From Giardia intestinalis (Eukaryota): a stretch of 64,000 nt of DNA. The number at the start of each line of letters is the position of its first letter. The first letter of the stretch is position 1. Under the pieces are notes generated by a model. It did not search any database. It saw only the letters and a list, made by a program, of their open reading frames with translations, and had not been told where the DNA came from. The position numbers and the translations under genes are program-made. Below, in pieces: positions 9,760-37,488 of this stretch. Location of the stretch: NCBI GenBank assembly GCA_000002435.2, contig CM018792.1; one strand, written 5' to 3'.

Positions 9760-10524
9760 CTACCGGGTCGCAGACAGGAAGAGGAGCCCGAAGAAGACGG
9801 CCGTGCTCGCCGTCACCCCCGCCACGGCCCCGATGTTCCTCACACGGCAGTCACATAGATCCCTGTGGTAGCCCTCGGCACAGACACAGGCATCCTTGTA
9901 GCACTCCCCGTGTCCTGTGCACACACTCCCAGCCAGACGAGTGTTCAGGTACTTCTTGCTGGCGCACAGCTGGCCATGGGGGACCGCGTCCTCGTCGCAC
10001 TGGCACGCAAGGGCGGCTGTGGCGTTCTGCACACACGTCCTGCCCCTTGCCTTGGGCGTCCAGTTGCAGGCAGCCCCGTTCTTCACGCACTGGGCGTGCA
10101 CGCACGTGCTGTTCAGCATCACAAAGCCGTCCTCACACTTGCACAGGTACTCTCCATCACTGTATAGGCATTCTCCGTGCGGGCACACAAAACCCGTGTC
10201 CGAAACACACCCCGCCGGGGCGCACCCGTGGTCCGGAATGTGCTTGAATGGTGGCACGCACAGACACTGGTGTCTCGCCGTGGAGTGGTCCAGTCGGCAG
10301 AGCAGAGAGCTCGTCAGGTTTGCCACGAAGCCGTCGGTGAGGATCGTGCTATTGTTGTTTCTGATGCTCTTATCAAGCATGTGGGGGTATCCGCAGAGCC
10401 GCTCTCCGACGACGCACTCGGCCGGGTAGCACAGCCCCTCGGGGGGAGTAGTCCTGGCAGGCGCCTGCGGGCTGTCTTGGTTGTCGGCTTCGGCTGCTGC
10501 CCTCGAGAGAACCCTGGGCTGCAA
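9760..10524 (-). CDS. EGF-like cysteine-rich membrane protein (HCMP/Notch-like EGF modules), possibly 5'-incomplete
   Basis: EGF-type Cys spacing (CKCEDGFV, CVCAEGYHRDLCDC) is followed by a C-terminal TM segment IGAVAGVTASTAVFFGLLFL. No signal peptide is present at the annotated N-terminus (MQPRVLSRAAAEADNQDSPQAP...). Confidence 0.5.
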   Translation of the reverse strand: MQPRVLSRAAAEADNQDSPQAPARTTPPEGLCYPAECVVGERLCGYPHMLDKSIRNNNSTILTDGFVANLTSSLLCRLDHSTARHQCLCVPPFKHIPDHGCAPAGCVSDTGFVCPHGECLYSDGEYLCKCEDGFVMLNSTCVHAQCVKNGAACNWTPKARGRTCVQNATAALACQCDEDAVPHGQLCASKKYLNTRLAGSVCTGHGECYKDACVCAEGYHRDLCDCRVRNIGAVAGVTASTAVFFGLLFLSATR

Positions 10525-10996
10525 CGCACTGCCACTTCCCGAGGATTCCTATGCAGTGCCTACTTCCTCGTGGGTAGAGCGGGCATAGAGGCACGGTCTT
10601 GCCGCAGGATCCAGTGGATGCTTGGAGACAGGTGACCCAACGATTTCGTAAAATAGCGCCGCAGAGGCCATGGAGCGAGCAGATGCAATAGGCAATGCGT
10701 TTACTACCGAGACGCCCTGCCCCTGCAGGTGGGCCCAGTGATACAGTGACAGCAATGTACAGGAGTGCACCCCGACCAATCACTCCACAAGAGAGGTGCG
10801 ATCTGAGTCCGGCCCTCACTGGTCCTGTTCCTATGGAAGTCAGAGAGAACTGCGCTATCAGCTGGCCTCCGGTTGGTGTGCTCCTATCTCGTCCTTCTCC
10901 AGTCCAACTGATCAAGAGAGCAAGAGCGGCTGTCTCTCACTGCTCGCGGTCAATGCACAAGTCTGGTGAAAGAGCAGTGGCATACGAACCCGGCTA

Positions 10997-13900
10997 ATGT
11001 TGATAGGATTTCTCCTAGTTTGTGCAACCGTGCTGGCAAAGAACAGCGGGAAGACCGCATGCGTGGCGGCCTCTAACACAGCATGCGCAGCAGCCCTGGA
11101 CACGGCGGGCTGCAAGACCTGCGGCCCCGACGCCCAGACGTGCCTGGACTGCAAGACTCCTGGCGAGAACGTGCAGCTCGATAAAAGAAGCTGCAAGGCC
11201 AACTGCCCGCAGAACTCCTCCCCCAACCAGAACGTCTGCGAGTGCGACCCGGGATTCAGCCTGAACAATGGAAAAGACGCGTGCGAGGCGGTTGCCAACG
11301 TCAACTGCGCAGCAGCCCTGGACACGGCGGGCTGCAAGACCTGCGGCCCCGACGCCCAGACGTGCCTGGACTGCAAGACTCCTGGCGAGAACGTGCAGCT
11401 CGATAAAAGAAGCTGCAAGGCCAACTGCCCGCAGAACTCCTCCCCCAACCAGAACGTCTGCGAGTGCGACCCGGGATTCAGCCTGAACAATGGAAAAGAC
11501 GCGTGCGAGGCGGTTGCCAACGTCAACTGCGCAGCAGCCCTGGACACGGCGGGCTGCAAGACCTGCGGCCCCGACGCCCAGACGTGCCTGGACTGCAAGA
11601 CTCCTGGCGAGAACGTGCAGCTCGATAAAAGAAGCTGCAAGGCCAACTGCCCGCAGAACTCCTCCCCCAACCAGAACGTCTGCGAGTGCGACCCGGGATT
11701 CAGCCTGAACAATGGAAAAGACGCGTGCGAGGCGGTTGCCAACGTCAACTGCGCAGCAGCCCTGGACACGGCGGGCTGCAAGACCTGCGGCCCCGACGCC
11801 CAGACGTGCCTGGACTGCAAGACTCCTGGCGAGAACGTGCAGCTCGATAAAAGAAGCTGCAAGGCCAACTGCCCGCAGAACTCCTCCCCCAACCAGAACG
11901 TCTGCGAGTGCGACCCGGGATTCAGCCTGAACAATGGAAAAGACGCGTGCGAGGCGGTTGCCAACGTCAACTGCGCAGCAGCCCTGGACACGGCGGGCTG
12001 CAAGACCTGCGGCCCCGACGCCCAGACGTGCCTGGACTGCAAGACTCCTGGCGAGAACGTGCAGCTCGATAAAAGAAGCTGCAAGGCCAACTGCCCGCAG
12101 AACTCCTCCCCCAACCAGAACGTCTGCGAGTGCGACCCGGGATTCAGCCTGAACAATGGAAAAGACGCGTGCGAGGCGGTTGCCAACGTCAACTGCGCAG
12201 CAGCCCTGGACACGGCGGGCTGCAAGACCTGCGGCCCCGACGCCCAGACGTGCCTGGACTGCAAGACTCCTGGCGAGAACGTGCAGCTCGATAAAAGAAG
12301 CTGCAAGGCCAACTGCCCGCAGAACTCCTCCCCCAACCAGAACGTCTGCGAGTGCGACCCGGGATTCAGCCTGAACAATGGAAAAGACGCGTGCGAGGCG
12401 GTTGCCAACGTCAACTGCGCAGCAGCCCTGGACACGGCGGGCTGCAAGACCTGCGGCCCCGACGCCCAGACGTGCCTGGACTGCAAGACTCCTGGCGAGA
12501 ACGTGCAGCTCGATAAAAGAAGCTGCAAGGCCAACTGCCCGCAGAACTCCTCCCCCAACCAGAACGTCTGCGAGTGCGACCCGGGATTCAGCCTGAACAA
12601 TGGAAAAGACGCGTGCGAGGCGGTTGCCAACGTCAACTGCGCAGCAGCCCTGGACACGGCGGGCTGCAAGACCTGCGGCCCCGACGCCCAGACGTGCCTG
12701 GACTGCAAGACTCCTGGCGAGAACGTGCAGCTCGATAAAAGAAGCTGCAAGGCCAACTGCCCGCAGAACTCCTCCCCCAACCAGAACGTCTGCGAGTGCG
12801 ACCCGGGATTCAGCCTGAACAATGGAAAAGACGCGTGCGAGGCGGTTGCCAACGTCAACTGCGCAGCAGCCCTGGACACGGCGGGCTGCAAGACCTGCGG
12901 CCCCGACGCCCAGACGTGCCTGGACTGCAAGACTCCTGGCGAGAACGTGCAGCTCGATAAAAGAAGCTGCAAGGCCAACTGCCCGCAGAACTCCTCCCCC
13001 AACCAGAACGTCTGCGAGTGCGACCCGGGATTCAGCCTGAACAATGGAAAAGACGCGTGCGAGGCGGTTGCCAACGTCAACTGCGCAGCAGCCCTGGACA
13101 CGGCGGGCTGCAAGACCTGCGGCCCCGACGCCCAGACGTGCCTGGACTGCAAGACTCCTGGCGAGAACGTGCAGCTCGATAAAAGAAGCTGCAAGGCCAA
13201 CTGCCCGCAGAACTCCTCCCCCAACCAGAACGTCTGCGAGTGCGACCCGGGATTCAGCCTGAACAATGGAAAAGACGCGTGCGAGGCGGTTGCCAACGTC
13301 AACTGCGCAGCAGCCCTGGACACGGCGGGCTGCAAGACCTGCGGCCCCGACGCCCAGACGTGCCTGGACTGCAAGACTCCTGGCGAGAACGTGCAGCTCG
13401 ATAAAAGAAGCTGCAAGGCCAACTGCCCGCAGAACTCCTCCCCCAACCAGAACGTCTGCGAGTGCGACCCGGGATTCAGCCTGAACAATGGAAAAGACGC
13501 GTGCGAGGCGGTTGCCAACGTCAACTGCGCAGCAGCCCTGGACACGGCGGGCTGCAAGACCTGCGGCCCCGACGCCCAGACGTGCCTGGACTGCAAGACT
13601 CCTGGCGAGAACGTGCAGCTCGATAAAAGAAGCTGCAAGGCCAACTGCCCGCAGAACTCCTCCCCCAACCAGAACGTCTGCGAGTGCGACCCGGGATTCA
13701 GCCTGAACAATGGAAAAGACGCGTGCGAGGCGGTTGCCAACGTCAACTGCGCAGCAGCCCTGGACACGGCGGGCTGCAAGACCTGCGGCCCCGACGCCCA
13801 GACGTGCCTGGACTGCAAGACTCCTGGCGAGAACGTGCAGCTCGATAAAAGAAGCTGCAAGGCCAACTGCCCGCAGAACTCCTCCCCCAACCAGAACGTC

Positions 13901-15805
13901 TGCGAGTGCGACCCGGGATTCAGCCTGAACAATGGAAAAGACGCGTGCGAGGCGGTTGCCAACGTCAACTGCGCAGCAGCCCTGGACACGGCGGGCTGCA
14001 AGACCTGCGGCCCCGACGCCCAGACGTGCCTGGACTGCAAGACTCCTGGCGAGAACGTGCAGCTCGATAAAAGAAGCTGCAAGGCCAACTGCCCGCAGAA
14101 CTCCTCCCCCAACCAGAACGTCTGCGAGTGCGACCCGGGATTCAGCCTGAACAATGGAAAAGACGCGTGCGAGGCGGTTGCCAACGTCAACTGCGCAGCA
14201 GCCCTGGACACGGCGGGCTGCAAGACCTGCGGCCCCGACGCCCAGACGTGCCTGGACTGCAAGACTCCTGGCGAGAACGTGCAGCTCGATAAAAGAAGCT
14301 GCAAGGCCAACTGCCCGCAGAACTCCTCCCCCAACCAGAACGTCTGCGAGTGCGACCCGGGATTCAGCCTGAACAATGGAAAAGACGCGTGCGAGGCGGT
14401 TGCCAACGTCAACTGCGCAGCAGCCCTGGACACGGCGGGCTGCAAGACCTGCGGCCCCGACGCCCAGACGTGCCTGGACTGCAAGACTCCTGGCGAGAAC
14501 GTGCAGCTCGATAAAAGAAGCTGCAAGGCCAACTGCCCGCAGAACTCCTCCCCCAACCAGAACGTCTGCGAGTGCGACCCGGGATTCAGCCTGAACAATG
14601 GAAAAGACGCGTGCGAGGCGGTTGCCAACGTCAACTGCGCAGCAGCCCTGGACACGGCGGGCTGCAAGACCTGCGGCCCCGACGCCCAGACGTGCACGGC
14701 CTGTACAGAGGCTTCCAACAATGTACAGATTGACAAGAAGAGCTGCAAGGCCGACTGCCCGTCGAACTCTGCAGCCAACGGCCAGCACGTCTGCGAGTGC
14801 GCCGTTGGGTACCAGCCGACTCCCGGGCAGAACCAGTGCGAGAAGGCCCCTAACACGCAGTGCAATACTCCCAACTGCAAGACCTGTGACAACCCCAAAA
14901 CAGACAACGAAATCTGCACTGAATGTAATGATGGCAACTACCTCACCCCGACAAAGCAGTGCACGCAGAGCTGCGGAGCAATAGGAAGCTACTACAACGG
15001 AGACAAAGTGTGCGAGCCTTGTGATCCTAGCTGTGCTGGGTGCACCACAAAGGGGCCAGCGAAGTGCACAGCTTGTCCTCCCGGGAAAATGCTAAAATAC
15101 ACCAATGATGATCCTAATCAAGGTGGATCCTGCGTAGATGAGTGCAAAGCAGAGATGGACGGGTGTGCAGAGTGTGGAGCGGTAATCGGCGGTACGAAGT
15201 ACTGTTCAAAATGCAAGGAAGATAAGTGGGCACCTCAGAATGGCGTGTGCGCTAATTCAGTAACAAGGAATTCATTCTGCACGAACGCAGCAGGTGGCGT
15301 ATGCACTCAGTGTGCTGCAGATCATTTTCTTCAAGATGGAGGCTGCTATAAACTCGGTAGACAGCCTGGTGTCCAGATATGTGCAGCGGCGGGTCCCAAT
15401 AGCCTGTGTACTACGTGCGTAAATGGACAGAGACCAGATACCAATACTGGAGCCTGTCCTGTGTGTCCAACAGGTTGTGACACATGTACAGGGACATCCT
15501 CGCGGGCGCCCGAATGCCAATCTTGCCTTCTGGGATACTATTTCGATTCTGATAAAAAGCTGTGTGTGAAATGTACCGAGAATAGTAGTGCTATTCAAGG
15601 TGTTAGCAGCTGTGTGAGCTGTAGTCCTCCATCTAATAATCAAGGATCTGTCGTCTGCTACCTCATAAATGATAGCGGTAGCACAAACAAGAGTAGCAGG
15701 CTCTCCACTGGGGCCATCGCTGGCATCTCCGTTGCTGTGGTCGTTGTTGTAGGAGGGCTTGTTGGCTTCTTGTGTTGGTGGTTCCTCTGCCGCGGGAAGG
15801 CGTAG
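10997..15805 (+). CDS. Variant-specific surface protein (VSP), 1602 aa, containing about 16.5 tandem 74-aa Cys-rich repeats
   Basis: The protein has a signal peptide MLIGFLLVCATVLA. About 16 copies of NVNCAAALDTAGCKTCGPDAQTCLDCKTPGENVQLDKRSCKANCPQNSSPNQNVCECDPGFSLNNGKDACEAVA follow. A unique CXXC-rich region containing GGCY comes next. The C-terminus is the TM GAIAGISVAVVVVVGGLVGFLCWWFLC followed by the invariant tail CRGKA*. Confidence 0.9.
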   Translation: MLIGFLLVCATVLAKNSGKTACVAASNTACAAALDTAGCKTCGPDAQTCLDCKTPGENVQLDKRSCKANCPQNSSPNQNVCECDPGFSLNNGKDACEAVANVNCAAALDTAGCKTCGPDAQTCLDCKTPGENVQLDKRSCKANCPQNSSPNQNVCECDPGFSLNNGKDACEAVANVNCAAALDTAGCKTCGPDAQTCLDCKTPGENVQLDKRSCKANCPQNSSPNQNVCECDPGFSLNNGKDACEAVANVNCAAALDTAGCKTCGPDAQTCLDCKTPGENVQLDKRSCKANCPQNSSPNQNVCECDPGFSLNNGKDACEAVANVNCAAALDTAGCKTCGPDAQTCLDCKTPGENVQLDKRSCKANCPQNSSPNQNVCECDPGFSLNNGKDACEAVANVNCAAALDTAGCKTCGPDAQTCLDCKTPGENVQLDKRSCKANCPQNSSPNQNVCECDPGFSLNNGKDACEAVANVNCAAALDTAGCKTCGPDAQTCLDCKTPGENVQLDKRSCKANCPQNSSPNQNVCECDPGFSLNNGKDACEAVANVNCAAALDTAGCKTCGPDAQTCLDCKTPGENVQLDKRSCKANCPQNSSPNQNVCECDPGFSLNNGKDACEAVANVNCAAALDTAGCKTCGPDAQTCLDCKTPGENVQLDKRSCKANCPQNSSPNQNVCECDPGFSLNNGKDACEAVANVNCAAALDTAGCKTCGPDAQTCLDCKTPGENVQLDKRSCKANCPQNSSPNQNVCECDPGFSLNNGKDACEAVANVNCAAALDTAGCKTCGPDAQTCLDCKTPGENVQLDKRSCKANCPQNSSPNQNVCECDPGFSLNNGKDACEAVANVNCAAALDTAGCKTCGPDAQTCLDCKTPGENVQLDKRSCKANCPQNSSPNQNVCECDPGFSLNNGKDACEAVANVNCAAALDTAGCKTCGPDAQTCLDCKTPGENVQLDKRSCKANCPQNSSPNQNVCECDPGFSLNNGKDACEAVANVNCAAALDTAGCKTCGPDAQTCLDCKTPGENVQLDKRSCKANCPQNSSPNQNVCECDPGFSLNNGKDACEAVANVNCAAALDTAGCKTCGPDAQTCLDCKTPGENVQLDKRSCKANCPQNSSPNQNVCECDPGFSLNNGKDACEAVANVNCAAALDTAGCKTCGPDAQTCLDCKTPGENVQLDKRSCKANCPQNSSPNQNVCECDPGFSLNNGKDACEAVANVNCAAALDTAGCKTCGPDAQTCTACTEASNNVQIDKKSCKADCPSNSAANGQHVCECAVGYQPTPGQNQCEKAPNTQCNTPNCKTCDNPKTDNEICTECNDGNYLTPTKQCTQSCGAIGSYYNGDKVCEPCDPSCAGCTTKGPAKCTACPPGKMLKYTNDDPNQGGSCVDECKAEMDGCAECGAVIGGTKYCSKCKEDKWAPQNGVCANSVTRNSFCTNAAGGVCTQCAADHFLQDGGCYKLGRQPGVQICAAAGPNSLCTTCVNGQRPDTNTGACPVCPTGCDTCTGTSSRAPECQSCLLGYYFDSDKKLCVKCTENSSAIQGVSSCVSCSPPSNNQGSVVCYLINDSGSTNKSSRLSTGAIAGISVAVVVVVGGLVGFLCWWFLCRGKA
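11046..14700 (+). repeat. Tandem array of about 16.5 x 222 bp, apparently 100% identical units, inside the VSP coding sequence
   Basis: The identical 72-aa alternate-frame ORFs at 11268, 11490, ... 14598 are spaced exactly 222 nt apart (16 copies). Both antisense frames stay open across the whole array. By-eye comparison of units shows no mismatches. Confidence 0.9.
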
Positions 15806-15817
15806 ATTTAACTGTAC

Positions 15818-15832
15818 ACTTAGGTAGTAAAC
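15818..15832 (+). promoter_or_regulatory. VSP-type extended poly(A) signal ACTTAGGTAGTAAAC (contains AGTAAAC), 13 nt after the stop
   Basis: Matches the conserved VSP 3' motif ACTYAGRTAGTRAAY described for Giardia VSP genes. Confidence 0.55.
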
Positions 15833-16320
15833 GTATTATATCGACGGATCCCGTTAGGGGCTGCCTGAGTGCCATTCCTGACTGCACAGTCTGTGCTCTG
15901 AGACAGCGCCTAAATGAGTCTAGATAAAGCCAGCAGTTACTTCGGTACTCTGGGAGGCCAGTAGGCAATGCGATCAATCACAGCTAACGGGGTCACCTTC
16001 TAGAACAGAACGAGTGGAAGAAGTCAAACTGACGGGTTTTAGTGAGGCACTTTTAAAAATCTTTAGGCTTGGATTTGGTGATAGAACATCCAGGCACAGT
16101 AGAGGAAACAACAGAATATGTAGTCACCTGTTCACTCTAGTTAAGATGGCTTGACTGCGAAGTTTAGTAAGGTGGATGTATTGTACGCATAGAAGGTGCT
16201 ATTAGTGTGTCTAAGAACCAGTCGATAGTAAGGGCGGCGCATTTTTCTCATGTACACGAACACGTGTTAAATCTGCTCCTGAGAACGGCATTTAAAAAGT
16301 ACTTATATTGTCGTCGGTGA

Positions 16321-16926
16321 ATGTCAACCCTGACCTCGCACACGGTGATGTGCTCCGAAGTCGCAGAGATGACCGAGACACAAGCAAGTGGCGGTTCAAC
16401 TAAGCAAGCGTCATCTCCGATTCCAATCGGAGCACCCATCAGCGCCGAGGAGGCTGCTAAGCTCTGGGATGAGTCCTTGTGTCCCGAACTTCCTCCCATT
16501 GCTCCGGGCGCGGGGAAGGTGTCTATATGCGATCTTCGCATCCTAAGCCCGGATCTAATGGAGCCTCTCGTCTACTCTACAAGTTCCATTACTCCGGAAC
16601 ATACCCAGAAGCCTCTCTATACCATCAAGCAGGGCTGTCTCTTTTCCATGGGCTTCTCCTGGCGGGTCTCTGAAGCGCCCATAGTTGGGTTCAGATCCCT
16701 TGTTCGGATTTACCGCCTAGGCATCCCTGTCTACAAGGGGAGGGTATTCCTCGGAACGTTTCTTCCTCGAAGTGAGCCATATATATATTTCATGTCCGAA
16801 GAGTGTGCACCCAAGGGCATTCTGGCAAAGGGGTACTTCAGGGCAAAATTAGAATTCGTGGATGAACACAACACCAGCTTTGGGAGTCTGGAGTACCTGT
16901 TTAACTTTTCAGATAATTGGGGTTAA
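16321..16926 (+). CDS. Rho GDP-dissociation inhibitor (RhoGDI) homologue
   Basis: The C-terminal half aligns with metazoan RhoGDI. YRLGIPVYKGRVFLGTFLPRSEPYIYFMSEECAPKGILAKGYFRAKLEFVDEHNTSFGSLEYLFNFSDNW matches [70 protein letters not shown]. About 200 aa with a true ATG start. Confidence 0.8.
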   Translation: MSTLTSHTVMCSEVAEMTETQASGGSTKQASSPIPIGAPISAEEAAKLWDESLCPELPPIAPGAGKVSICDLRILSPDLMEPLVYSTSSITPEHTQKPLYTIKQGCLFSMGFSWRVSEAPIVGFRSLVRIYRLGIPVYKGRVFLGTFLPRSEPYIYFMSEECAPKGILAKGYFRAKLEFVDEHNTSFGSLEYLFNFSDNWG

Positions 16927-16959
16927 CCGCTGGTTTATCGAAGTATGCAAGAGCCACGC

Positions 16960-17463
16960 CTATTCTAGAAGGTCTGATGTGGAGTTTATTGTGGTCCCGT
17001 AGACAAAGAGTGGGATGTTAGGCAGTCTACTCAACAGCCTGCCCCTGTGTGTCTCCGGGGTGGACCACGAGTAAACTGGTGGGCTGCAGATGCCCCTGCG
17101 GTAGTCCCTTTGCTGTTTGTACTCCCGTAGCTTGGTGCGCGCGTGGTGGCTAATTTGCTCATCTAGCTCTTGCATTGTCCTTTGCCTCTCACGCGTCTCA
17201 AGGTGCAGCGCTTGGCACATGGCGTCTCTATTCAACGCGGTGACACGGTGGAAGAAGCAGCTCTCCTGAGGGCGTGTATGTACACTGATCTGTTCCATGA
17301 GATCGCGCGCAGTTTGCATTCGCAGGAGATTTTGCTTCTCCCGCTCTAGCAGGAGCTCAGTATCGTAGACTGCAGGATGCAGTGCTTCTGGCCCCACTGG
17401 GTGATGAATGGTGCACTTCAGAAGGCCGGCCTCAGCCAGAGGGTCGTCGCACTGAGGCGCCAT
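16960..17463 (-). CDS. Hypothetical protein, 167 aa
   Basis: ORF-track ORF, convergent with RhoGDI across a 33-nt gap. No recognisable domain. Confidence 0.45.
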   Translation of the reverse strand: MAPQCDDPLAEAGLLKCTIHHPVGPEALHPAVYDTELLLEREKQNLLRMQTARDLMEQISVHTRPQESCFFHRVTALNRDAMCQALHLETRERQRTMQELDEQISHHARTKLREYKQQRDYRRGICSPPVYSWSTPETHRGRLLSRLPNIPLFVYGTTINSTSDLLE

Positions 17464-28423: not shown

Positions 28424-30958
28424 TTATCCCACGCCCTTATATGCCCTTATCACCTCTGCAGAGCGGACTTTGTTGTGCTTTACGGCATACTCGAGCATGG
28501 TCAGACCATCGTGGGTACGCAGTGATCCCTCTTTGTCCATGAGGAGTTTAATGCACTCTTCCTGCTCGTTCATAATGGCTAGCATAAGCGCTGTCTCGTT
28601 CTTCCAATTCCGCATCTTAGCCTCGGCAAGCAACAAGCGCACGCACGCTGAGTGGCCGTTACCAGCTGCGCTCATGAGTGCGGTATACTTTGCCTTGTTG
28701 GCCATCTTTATCTCTTCTTTAAGGAGAGGAATGCACTCTGACTTTCCATAAAATGCCGCCTTCATGAGTGCAGTCCATCCTTTACTATCTGTCTGCTTCT
28801 TTTCATATATATGTTGTTTAACACCACAAACTGAGCCTATTCTTGCTGCTTCCATCAAATTTGTCGTTCCCTCATTGTTCTTGTTCTGTCCCAAGCCTCT
28901 GATATATTCCAACGGTGGATCATAGACAGTCAGTCTCATGTGTGTCTCCTCGGTAGGTGAGCCTCTGCTGTTCTCTTCCCTAGTAGATGCATTTTCATTA
29001 TTCAATGTTGTGCTAGAGTATTCCCTAACAAGCTCTAGTAAATCTGTATTTTCGAGATTCTCCGCTATTATAAGGGGAGACGTTCCGTCGGAAAGGGTTA
29101 TCATCGCCTCACGCTTTGCCAAGGCCCTCACCCCATCAATATTATTTCTTTGCAATGCAAGCATCAAGGCACTATATCCATTAACATCAGTCATTCCTGA
29201 CTCAGCATCCAGTAGGACGTTGATTAGCTCACTCATTCCCCGTTCACAGGCATACATAAGCGCCGTTCTCCCATCACTATCCTGTATCTTCGATTCAAAG
29301 TCAGCAAGTACTCTAGCTACGTCTACATGTCCATTCAAAATGGCAAGCATTAGCGCAGTCTTCCCATCGTGTCGCTGGAGTCTGTACTCGCCCAACAAGT
29401 AGCTCAACGCCTCACTATTCCCTGTCTCGGCAGCTATCATCAGAGCAGTGGTGTTATCTGCTTTTCTCTGTTTCAACTGCGAGATATTACTGAGAAGAGC
29501 AGGCATGTTTCTGTTTCGTACGGCGATCATGAGGGCGGTGTCATCGCTAACTGCAGTGCTTTCTAGTTCTGACTCCAGCGCTGGTGAGGCTGCCAAGTGG
29601 GATGAGGACTGGAGCTTCTCCTCGGGCTGCTGAGAGTAAGCCTTGTGTACAGAAAGATAGATCATCATTGCCATCTGATTACAGATTTGATGTATCTGCT
29701 TGAAAACGTCAGAGCTTGCAGGGCTACAGATTCCTACATCGTCCATGCTTCCAGGCTTAGGAATCTGCAACGGGAACTGCACTGGTATTTGCATTGGCAT
29801 TGACATCTGCACAGGCATCTGCACAGGCATTGGCATAGGGATTGATGTGGAAATCGGGAGAGATTGTACATTACGGGGAGAGTTGAAGGTTGGGACGAGG
29901 TTTTGGTCCTGGTCATGAGCGATGTGCATATTGAGTCCTGGAGGCTGCAAATCTTGCATCTGAGAAAACAGCGGTGGGGCTGAAGAATAGATCATCGGCA
30001 GGCTTTGCTGTGATTTTGGCGTAAAGGTTGACTGTTTTGGACTGAGGAGAAAAGACCCTGGATTCCTTTGGGGGCCATGCAACTCGTTTGCGAGTGTGTC
30101 TTTTATTCTCGGATGAGAACGTAACTGTGAGATAGTGCTTCGCATGTTGACAGATATGTATAGACAGTTCTTAATTAATTCAAGGAGCTCATTGCTATAA
30201 TGTTCTAGGCCGTGCAGTGTAGAGAGATCTAGGGGTTCATTGGAGGCCCTTGGGTCAATGACAGATAGAGGTTCAAGCAGAGTGCACATGGTAAGGAGAA
30301 TACATCCAAGTGACCACGCATCTGCAGCCGGACCATAGGCTGCCCCGGCTAGCAGTTCTGGTGCAATGTATATCCGAAGGCTTTCAGAGCTGTAGTCGCC
30401 AAGCAAGCGCGTAGCGCTAAAATTGTCTATCTTAATTATGTCGTCTTCTGTGAGCAAAATGTTTGAAGGTCTAAGGCACCGGTAGCTCTTTATAGAACAG
30501 TATTGTGGAGTAAGGTGAGTGTGCAAATATTCTAGTACAAATACTATGACAGCCGCAACGCGCCATATAAAGTCTTCACGTATAATTCGTCTACTGGCTT
30601 TATGATTAATAACCATGTCTTGTACTGAGCCCAGAGAGCAGTATTCAGACTCCAAATAGACCTTATCTCCCATGCTTCCCTTGTGAATAGCTTTGTAACG
30701 CACGATATTTGGGCAAGTAAGCTCTTTGATAGCGGTAACATAGCCCTCCAAAAGGTCTATTTGGTCCGAAGAAAGATTTGAGAGATCAACCTCCTTCAAA
30801 ATAACGGGGCATCCTTGGTCCACTTTAATTGCAAGATATGTTTTCCCTGCCGTGCTAGACCCAACACATTGAATACTAGCAAAGCGGTCGCCCAGCGGAT
30901 GGAAATCTATCGACATATTCTCCTTCATTTTTTTTCGATACGAGGATTTAGAAGTCAT
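28424..30958 (-). CDS. NEK-like protein kinase domain (predicted inactive: HRD replaced by YRC) fused to C-terminal ankyrin repeats
   Basis: N-terminal kinase fold landmarks are a degenerate G-loop VGSSTAGKTYLA, VILK, CPNIVRY, YRCLRPSNILL in place of HRDLKPxN, DNF in place of DFG, APELL and DAWSLGCIL. An (I/M)P(V/M)Q-rich low-complexity linker follows, then at least 7 ankyrin units (TALMIAVRNRNMPALL, GKTALMLAILNGHVDVARVL ...). Confidence 0.8.
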   Translation of the reverse strand: MTSKSSYRKKMKENMSIDFHPLGDRFASIQCVGSSTAGKTYLAIKVDQGCPVILKEVDLSNLSSDQIDLLEGYVTAIKELTCPNIVRYKAIHKGSMGDKVYLESEYCSLGSVQDMVINHKASRRIIREDFIWRVAAVIVFVLEYLHTHLTPQYCSIKSYRCLRPSNILLTEDDIIKIDNFSATRLLGDYSSESLRIYIAPELLAGAAYGPAADAWSLGCILLTMCTLLEPLSVIDPRASNEPLDLSTLHGLEHYSNELLELIKNCLYISVNMRSTISQLRSHPRIKDTLANELHGPQRNPGSFLLSPKQSTFTPKSQQSLPMIYSSAPPLFSQMQDLQPPGLNMHIAHDQDQNLVPTFNSPRNVQSLPISTSIPMPMPVQMPVQMSMPMQIPVQFPLQIPKPGSMDDVGICSPASSDVFKQIHQICNQMAMMIYLSVHKAYSQQPEEKLQSSSHLAASPALESELESTAVSDDTALMIAVRNRNMPALLSNISQLKQRKADNTTALMIAAETGNSEALSYLLGEYRLQRHDGKTALMLAILNGHVDVARVLADFESKIQDSDGRTALMYACERGMSELINVLLDAESGMTDVNGYSALMLALQRNNIDGVRALAKREAMITLSDGTSPLIIAENLENTDLLELVREYSSTTLNNENASTREENSRGSPTEETHMRLTVYDPPLEYIRGLGQNKNNEGTTNLMEAARIGSVCGVKQHIYEKKQTDSKGWTALMKAAFYGKSECIPLLKEEIKMANKAKYTALMSAAGNGHSACVRLLLAEAKMRNWKNETALMLAIMNEQEECIKLLMDKEGSLRTHDGLTMLEYAVKHNKVRSAEVIRAYKGVG

Positions 30959-36183: not shown

Positions 36184-37488
36184 TTGTGCGTGATGCAGTG
36201 CCCCAGTTCCGCCTGTTGCTGCTGCCAATGGAGGCCCGCCATAACGTTCTACGCAGTCTTTCTGATCAGCCTTGCGCTCCAACTGGCGACAGAGGAGTGC
36301 ACAACCGTCTCTGGTGATCAGCCCGACACTTGCAAGGCCTGTAGCGCCGTCATCAACGGCAAGAAGTACTGCTCCCAGTGCAACGGCGGTGGGTCTCAAT
36401 CTGCCCCAACGGACGGAGTGTGCTCAGCAGACAACAACGAATGCCCCTAAAAGAACAACGGAGTATGTACACAGTGCGCTCATGAGTCCTTCATGTACAA
36501 GAGCGGATGCTACAAGGATAGCCAGGCACCTGGCAACACGATGTGTGAAACAGCAACTGATGGAGTGTGCACACTAACTAAGGCTGGATACTTCGTGCCG
36601 CCGGGCGCAGACGCCTCTCACCAGTCGGTCATACCATGTGGAGACGAAGAGGAAATAACAGTTAAAGATGGCAAGAAGTACAAGGGTGTGCCGCACTGCA
36701 CTCGGTGTAATACGCCTGACGCAGCAACCGATGCTAACGCCAAGGCTGCCACGTGCACGGCTTGTGAAGACGGGTACTTTGTAGATAGTAGTAAAGGGTG
36801 CACTGCCTGTGATGGTAGTTGTAAGACGTGTGAGGCCACAAGAGATACTAAGCGCAAGTCTTGTACAGAGGAAACACACTTCCTTGGGGCAGCTTCTGGT
36901 GGAGAAGGCAAGTGCATATCGTGCGGAGATGCATCTGACAGTACATGGAAGGGCGTCGATGGGTGCCTGAAGTGCACTACATCGGGAAAAAACACCCCTG
37001 CCACATGCACTGAGTGCCAAGAAGGCAAGTACCTGAAAGGCGGCGATCCCACTAGTTGTATTCTCAGAAACGCATGCACCGGAACACACTTCCCCAACGA
37101 CAATGCAGAGAATAAGAAGAAGTGTCTTCCTTGTGGTGATCATGTTAACGGTGGTATAGAGCACTGCTTGGAATGCGCACTGATCGAAGGTCAAGTTGAA
37201 GGGGTCCTTGTTACGTGCACTAAGTGTAGTACTAGAAAGAAGGTGAGCCCCGGGAGGAAGTCATGTGTGGATGGCTGTCCCAGCAACTCCACTGATGATA
37301 ACTCTGTCTGTGTGTGCAACGATGGGTACAGCCCTGACAGCAGTGGGGCCTCCTGTGTGTCCTCTGGCAGTAATAGGAGCGGGCTCTCCACGGGGGCCAT
37401 CGCGGGGATCTCCGTGGCTGTCATCGTCGTCGTGGGGGGTCTCATAGGGTTCCTCTGCTGGTGGTTCATATGTAGAGGGAAGGCGTGA
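36184..37488 (+). pseudogene. VSP gene interrupted by a single in-frame TAA (36448-36450). The upstream ORF carries the signal peptide and the downstream ORF the CXXC ectodomain, TM and CRGKA tail.
   Basis: ORFs 36184..36450 and 36493..37488 are in the same frame. The read-through sequence is ...CSADNNECP*KNNGVCTQCAHESFMYKSGCYK..., with VSP CXXC spacing continuous across the stop. The C-terminus is GAIAGISVAVIVVVGGLIGFLCWWFICRGKA*. Confidence 0.6.

Follow-up and report, generated by a model that had tools for sequence, protein, structure and literature searches.

A VSP gene with a long tandem array

Giardia carries about 130–300 genes for variant-specific surface proteins (VSPs), with a single one expressed by a trophozoite at any time, and repeat-bearing VSPs have been described as a class since 1988. 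Here, we analysed a 64,000-nt stretch of Giardia intestinalis DNA (contig CM018792.1 of assembly GCA_000002435.2; hereafter the window), which carries on its plus strand a VSP gene occupied for most of its length by a 222-bp tandem repeat. By exact-sequence look-up, the 1602-aa product of this gene is letter for letter XP_037901976.1 / KAE8303846.1 / UniRef100_A0A644F5E7, annotated as 'VSP' in G. intestinalis ATCC 50803 / WB clone C6 and encoded on a contig of 2,761,001 bp. The gene ID is GL50803_0050169, and a preprint supplement places it on chromosome 4 (NC_051859.1) with 4809 nt, 1602 aa, the motif taatgtt, 212 Cys and 48 CXXC (bioRxiv 10.1101/2022.03.07.483299). Our own counts match these values (212 Cys in 1602 aa, that is 13.2%, and 48 CXXC).

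Further properties of the sequence agree with this annotation. The protein matches the Pfam VSP family PF03302 (269 bits against a cut-off of 31.4, E 8.2e-80), and it ends with a C-terminal transmembrane (TM) helix and the invariant pentapeptide CRGKA. Its ectodomain is as rich in cysteine as those of VSPs generally are (about 11–13% Cys, with many CXXC), and a 285-residue Cys-rich region typical of the family lies between a diverged module, described below, and the TM helix. Inspection of the residues shows the N-terminus (MLIGFLLVCATVLAK) to be hydrophobic, as in a signal peptide, and one is marked 'Y' for GL50803_0050169 in Table S1 of the preprint (bioRxiv 10.1101/2022.03.07.483299).

The flanking signals are also those of a VSP gene, with an Inr-like TAATGTT at the start and an extended AGTAAA polyadenylation motif after the stop. 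The former is entered as 'taatgtt' both for GL50803_0050169 (Table S1, bioRxiv 10.1101/2022.03.07.483299) and for vsp18, a gene to which we return below (PMC2996952). As to the latter, the same 20-mer CACTTAGGTAGTAAACGTAT is entered for GL50803_0050169 and for a sister gene, GL50803_0050165 (supplementary file 5, bioRxiv 10.1101/2022.03.07.483299). Finally, the gene has the layout of vspA6: 87 nt are followed by 16.27 x 222 nt and these by 1.1 kb. No evidence contradicts the identification as a VSP.

Taken together, these data and those given below make it very probable that the gene is VSP GL50803_0050169, a type-I membrane antigen of G. intestinalis WB-C6 (assemblage AI, chromosome 4), with an array kept uniform by exchange or slippage. 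A preliminary description made from the letters of the sequence had already spoken of a 4.8-kb VSP gene, which the Pfam match, the CRGKA tail and the identity to XP_037901976.1 confirm. The gene is already annotated and belongs to a well-described class of repeat-bearing VSPs; being in the reference annotation, it is hardly a discovery. No main-text match came up when the literature was searched by accession or gene ID, and the gene appeared only in the supplements of one preprint (bioRxiv 10.1101/2022.03.07.483299).

The array is perfectly periodic

Tandem Repeats Finder (TRF) was run on positions 10000–17000 and then on the whole window. It reported a single array at 11084–14695 with a period of 222, 16.3 copies, 100% matches, 0% indels and a score of 7224, which is the only sizeable tandem repeat of the 64 kb. 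In a base-by-base periodicity test, w[i]=w[i+222] held at all i from 11084 to 14473. The perfectly periodic stretch thus measures 3612 bp, equal to 16.27 copies and to 75% of the coding sequence. Among the 16 full 222-nt units there are 0 mismatches, and the first 60 nt of the seventeenth unit are identical to them as well. Exact periodicity over 3.6 kb is beyond chance.

The preliminary description had proposed about 16.5 perfect 222-bp repeats at 11046–14700, with no substitutions over about 3.6 kb. The perfection stood up to the TRF run (100%) and to unit-by-unit comparison (0 mismatches, 0 indels); the count has to be corrected to 16.27 and the start to 11084. Similarly, CXXC pairs had been noticed in each 74-aa unit together with 9 Cys. 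We find two CXXC, one CXC and one CXXXC per unit, and the number of cysteines is 10. The array is in frame with the 1602-aa open reading frame (ORF) throughout (Table 1).

Both edges of the array are flanked by degenerate sequence. On the 5′ side, a partial unit at 11039–11083 has 25 of 45 nt in common with the 3′ end of the unit (KNSGKTACVAASNTA vs LNNGKDACEAVANVN). On the 3′ side, the seventeenth unit shares 134 of 222 nt and 36 of 74 aa with the array unit and has diverged past its first 60 nt. Since the array ends 60 nt into this unit and is preceded by a degenerate partial one, we suggest that the homology for the first unequal exchange came from two to three older modules that had already diverged.

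Table 1. Features of the VSP gene GL50803_0050169 and its surroundings (positions within the window).
Feature	Position	Strand	Basis or remark
Conserved 5′ upstream region	10755..10982	+	Common to the paralogous VSP GL50803_101496 (chromosome 5)
Inr-like TAATGTT overlapping the ATG (10997-10999)	10995..11001	+	Read from the sequence
VSP coding sequence, 1602 aa and stop	10997..15805	+	GL50803_0050169 / XP_037901976.1 / KAE8303846.1
Unique 5′ 87 nt with hydrophobic signal peptide MLIGFLLVCATVLAK...; the last 45 nt are the degenerate partial unit	10997..11083	+	Translation
Perfect array, 222-bp unit x 16.27	11084..14695	+	TRF, periodicity, unit comparison
Degenerate seventeenth unit	14636..14857	+	Unit comparison
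Non-repeated Cys-rich ectodomain, common to other VSPs	14858..15712	+	Homologue search, AF2 model
Transmembrane helix and cytoplasmic CRGKA tail	15713..15802	+	Columns nearly invariant in alignment A1; model helix at residues 442-459
Extended VSP polyadenylation motif CACTTAGGTAGTAAACGTAT; AGTAAA at 15826-15831	15817..15836	+	Starts 12 nt past the stop
Antisense 1341-aa ORF	10912..14937	-	By-product of the repeat, not a gene
Antisense 1257-aa ORF	11015-14788	-	By-product of the repeat, not a gene

Predicted structure of the module

A single-sequence AlphaFold2 (AF2) run on the N-terminus and four units was unusable, with a predicted local distance difference test (pLDDT) score of 39.5. A second model was based on an alignment (A1) of 50 VSP homologues with the sixteenth and seventeenth units and the C-terminal part of the protein. 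This model has a mean pLDDT of 83.3; unit blocks 1–6 score 90 or above and the last two 87 and 80. The predicted unit is a short helix followed by three small beta-hairpins, and the C-terminal ectodomain, where pLDDT is mostly 80–90, is likewise made of beta-hairpin modules.

A Foldseek search against the PDB returned local matches to the furin-like Cys-rich repeats of R-spondin (probability up to 0.99) and to the EGF arrays of NELL2 and megalin, as well as to the Cys-rich domains of TNFR, EGFR and the insulin receptor. Pfam cEGF-like stretches occur within each unit, and the only match of a PDB sequence search with two units (phmmer) was a weak one to an EGF domain of factor IX (E 0.15). According to the model, the modules are thus predicted to be disulfide-rich, furin/EGF-like beta-hairpin units.

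Ten cysteines per unit would be compatible with five disulfides inside each unit. With an even number, pairing could stay within the unit, so that modules might be added or lost without leaving a cysteine unpaired. The repeats would lengthen the ectodomain and multiply one epitope, as is the case for the immunodominant repeats of vspA6. By analogy, GL50803_0050169 may be expressed and its repeats may be immunodominant.

Relatives of the array

The closest counterpart is the above-mentioned GL50803_0050165 (XP_037901961.1), also on chromosome 4, which has the same layout and the same unit length of 222 bp / 74 aa. Its N-terminus is nearly identical (71/87 nt), and its taatgtt Inr and 20-nt poly(A) motif are identical to those of GL50803_0050169. 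We compared its array from the first 399 nt, which are shown in a preprint table; as far as this sequence runs, the second unit is an exact copy of the first. Its unit and the present one are 89.2% identical, with 24 differences in 222 nt that result in 14 aa changes (81% protein identity). The TM segment (AIAGIAVAAVIVV...) is unlike that of GL50803_0050169. With 1029 aa against 1602 aa, the sister protein must contain fewer copies, and published motif counts are 13–14 per repeat motif for GL50803_0050165 and 16–17 per once-per-unit motif (34 for another) for GL50803_0050169 (bioRxiv 10.1101/2022.03.07.483299).

GL50803_0050165 is probably vsp13 of Adam et al. 2010, with a length that is off by 8 aa. 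Relative to vsp13 (725 aa, 8 copies), it has 40 more Cys and 8 more CXXC, which equals four extra units; these would add 296 aa, but the two proteins differ in length by 304 aa.

AS7 (Q8I8V6; GL50803_137717) and O97448 are more distantly related members of the subfamily. They share the Cys pattern, and their units of 75–76 aa, starting from residue 17–30, are 41–49% identical to the present unit. Their units measure 225/228 bp, number only 4–5 and have diverged much further in sequence. For AS7, identity to the whole query is 63% over 95% of its length, and the C-terminal ectodomain is closely similar. Exact repeats were found in AS7 (75 aa x 5.0), in O97448 (76 aa x 4.2) and in a further VSP homologue (P0029; 101 aa x 4.0), and several P15 and assemblage B proteins also belong to the subfamily with 75–76-aa units and exact internal repeats. 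In AS7, O97448 and P0029 the repeats begin within about the first 100 residues, and in the closest relatives at residue 17–30. Exact repeats are the norm in VSPs, and vspA6/CRP170 and vspC5 were the first examples (PMC2996952). As the preliminary description had supposed, the unit does mark a lineage, namely a subfamily with 74–76-aa units that includes GL50803_0050165, AS7 and O97448.

Outside the array, the ectodomain of GL50803_101496 is 89% identical to that of GL50803_0050169. The similarity between these two genes extends upstream of the start codon, where about 230 nt (10755–10982) show 79% identity over 76 codons (tblastn, N-terminal read-through of the old model XP_001709308.1). This conserved 5′ flank indicates that the VSP duplication unit of the subfamily included the upstream region.

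Some other repeat-bearing VSPs have shorter units. CRP136 is a VSP-type protein that consists largely of many identical tandem units of about 120 bp, shorter than the present 222-bp unit. The vspA6 / CRP170 gene (vsp67), on chromosome 4, resembles GL50803_0050169 in that a unique 5′ end of 99 bp is followed by many identical units in a long array, then by about 1.3 kb without repeats and by a conserved 3′ end; it differs in its 195-bp (65 aa) unit of another sequence, in having about 23–25 copies and in its CAATGTT Inr (PMC2996952). Its repeats are immunodominant and their copy number varies between alleles (PMC2996952). In vspC5 (vsp90), many identical tandem units are again present (105 bp x about 25, with allelic copy-number variation), but the unit is 105 bp long and the array reaches the conserved 3′ region without a long unique ectodomain (PMC2996952). 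The statement in the preliminary description that VSPs have internal repeats of variable copy number is thus well founded in vspA6/CRP170 and in the allelic variation of vspC5.

In total, 30 repeat-bearing VSPs with units of 105–516 bp had been tabulated earlier (PMC2996952). In the PacBio genome, 36 of 136 VSPs carry tandem repeats, with an average length of 1174 aa for the repeat-bearing ones (bioRxiv 10.1101/2022.03.07.483299). The same preprint counts repeat motifs 26 times in a VSP of 1983 aa, so the present array is neither unique nor the longest.

Homologue searches with a reduced construct and with three units found no orthologues from other isolates. As they also missed the query's own entry and XP_037901961.1, this silence carries no weight. 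When JGI metagenome contigs were scanned for exact 33-mers, there were 0 matches.

A pattern of concerted evolution

Within the present array, divergence is 0/3612, whereas between the sister arrays it is 24/222 (11%). Zero divergence within and 11% between arrays is the pattern of concerted evolution, for which in-register unequal exchange, gene conversion or slippage, acting on each array, could account. On the basis of this sequence pattern, we propose unequal exchange or slippage as the process that homogenised the array. These figures fit the preliminary description, in which recent expansion or concerted evolution had been proposed.

In such a scheme, in-register unequal exchange or replication slippage between 222-bp units would both create the array and keep its units uniform. 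Single events would add or remove whole modules and spread one variant through the array, while the reading frame would be kept because the unit length is a multiple of 3. GL50803_0050169 and GL50803_0050165 form a clean concerted-evolution pair and could be used for studying homogenisation in a tetraploid, binucleate cell.

Some caveats apply to this interpretation. The copy number of the array was taken from a single assembly, and Quiver consensus polishing could have smoothed rare variants among the units or among the four chromosome copies, which would overstate the perfect identity. The exchange or slippage mechanism is deduced from the sequence pattern. On the protein side, the Foldseek matches have low TM-scores owing to the shape of the model, an elongated rod of several modules. 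Finally, positive selection between the sister units is not significant by the Nei-Gojobori method (dN/dS 1.24, Fisher p 0.79), so diversifying selection is not demonstrated. We had considered such selection since 14 codon differences between the units are nonsynonymous and 2 synonymous; this excess does not survive the test.

Probable identity with vsp18 and the length of the array

Adam et al. 2010 analysed the 2007 Sanger assembly and tabulated two 'TR222' genes, vsp13 and vsp15 (PMC2996952). We rejected an identity of the present gene with vsp13, as both vsp13 and vsp15 carry KSSGLSTGA and a different TM segment. In the C-terminal alignment of that study, the combination of KSSRLSTGA, AGSVAVVVV and WFLCRGKA found in the present gene matches only vsp18 (PMC2996952). 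The entry for vsp18 gives chromosome 4, TAATGTT, a length of 492 aa, 62 Cys and 18 CXXC, and has neither a GL50803 number nor a repeat flag (PMC2996952).

Removal of 15 units from the present protein gives vsp18 exactly. The length becomes 29+74+389 = 492 aa, the number of cysteines 212-150 = 62 and that of CXXC 48-30 = 18. Given the unique KSSRLSTGA and this exact fit of length, Cys and CXXC, the present gene is, from its sequence, almost certainly vsp18, and not vsp13, of the 2010 repertoire paper.

Since vsp18 equals the present protein without 15 units, the array was probably reduced to its minimal 1.27-copy form during Sanger assembly, which is the most economical reading. The authors of the repertoire paper themselves warned that assemblies condense repeats and that copy numbers are approximate (PMC2996952). 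A caution about the copy number in the assembly had also been voiced in the preliminary description, and it proved justified: what is almost certainly the same gene was recorded from the 2007 Sanger assembly as vsp18, with 492 aa and no repeat.

The opposite error would be that long-read assembly and polishing made the length or the uniformity of the array and that the real locus has fewer, more or slightly differing units. The reference was indeed built from PacBio reads polished with Quiver, and Illumina reads were then mapped to the draft due to homopolymer frameshifts (PMC7000408). Besides the single unit that the Sanger assembly appears to carry and the approximate nature of published copy numbers (PMC2996952), one could cite here that Giardia is tetraploid and that structural variants in WB are enriched at VSPs (PMC7048089). 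Yet a 3.6-kb array is well below the PacBio read length, so that spanning reads anchor it, and the error to be expected is Sanger collapse, not long-read inflation. In addition, independently cloned VSPs (AS7, O97448, vspA6) carry exact repeats as a rule, the array holds its frame exactly and the gene is intact. We therefore regard an artefact of this kind as quite unlikely.

The one unit of vsp18 in the 2007 assembly against the 16 units here is the sole hint of copy-number variation at this locus, and it may reflect assembly collapse. Alternatively, the one-unit and 16-unit forms may be real alleles on different chromosome copies or nuclei, of which the assembly shows one. Allelic variation in repeat number is documented in vspA6 and vspC5 (PMC2996952), and vsp18 fits a one-unit version with exact arithmetic; but an overlap assembler would likewise produce an exact minimal collapse from identical repeats, and the allelic heterozygosity of WB is very low (0.01%, quoted in PMC7048089). 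Such copy-number heterozygosity seems unlikely to us.

In a broader version of this idea, the single-unit form of 2010 and the 16-unit form of 2020 would both be real, with the locus heterozygous or unstable among the four chromosome copies, the two nuclei or WB-C6 sublines. Here too the chances appear slim. If it were true, the locus would be a tractable, uniform reporter for rates of mitotic unequal exchange and for inter-nuclear homogenisation in Giardia.

With a collapse in the Sanger assembly as the preferred explanation, the locus would be an apparent concrete case in which the first Giardia genome reduced a 3.6-kb perfect array to a single unit. As a consequence, a 1602-aa antigen would have been catalogued as a 492-aa VSP without repeats, which calls for caution with VSP repertoire counts from short-read assemblies.

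Antisense and alternate-frame ORFs

The array is overlain by long minus-strand ORFs of 1341 and 1257 aa, which the preliminary description had pointed out and which are both present in the ORF list. It had also listed sixteen identical 72-aa ORFs in an alternate sense frame, starting between 11268 and 14598. Their spacing of 222 nt is correct, and 15 of the 16 are identical; the last one leaves the array.

One 222-nt unit contains 0 stops in two of the three antisense frames and 1 stop in each alternate sense frame. As the unit is stop-free in two antisense frames and is repeated 16 times, long ORFs arise automatically. When the codons of the unit were shuffled, exactly two antisense frames stayed open in 72% of 2000 trials, and in the non-repeated part of the gene there are 4–13 antisense stops per frame. 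The long antisense ORFs are by-products of codon content.

We consider it extremely improbable that the antisense ORFs of 1341 and 1257 aa, or those of 72 aa in the alternate frame, give rise to real products, such as those of antisense genes tied to VSP silencing. The ORFs do exist, and antisense VSP transcripts are part of a published RNAi model of VSP control (cited in PMC2996952). However, a single unit that is open in two antisense frames explains both long ORFs, shuffled codons give the same outcome in most trials and the non-repeated part of the gene is closed in antisense. The translations of the antisense ORFs are low-complexity repeats rich in Ala, Gly, Arg and Leu, and antisense RNA does not need an ORF. 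On the codon-shuffle control, we rejected the antisense ORFs as genes.

Other features of the window

GL50803_0050169 is solitary here and lies outside any VSP cluster. The flanking genes are ordinary, coding for a papain-family protease, a Rho-GDI, an amino-acid transporter and ankyrin-repeat proteins.

A 331-aa ORF at 36493–37488 on the plus strand has a typical VSP tail and starts with MYKSGCYK without a signal peptide. Over its last 90 aa it shares 50% identity with the tail of GL50803_0050169. It is probably a 5′-truncated VSP or pseudo-VSP, the psiVSP of the 2020 annotation. On the minus strand, a Cys-rich ORF of 254 aa at 9760–10524 adjoins the 5′ region of the VSP gene. Its cysteines show EGF-like spacing, and a hydrophobic segment lies at the C-terminus. 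The mechanical ORF call places its start at a TTG, and there was no Pfam match at E<=0.001; the ORF may represent a small high-cysteine membrane protein or what is left of one.

The only other TRF match in the window is a short imperfect tandem repeat at 29763–29845 (period 42 or 30, 2 copies, 78–80% matches), which lies in a minus-strand ORF of 844 aa at 28424–30958.

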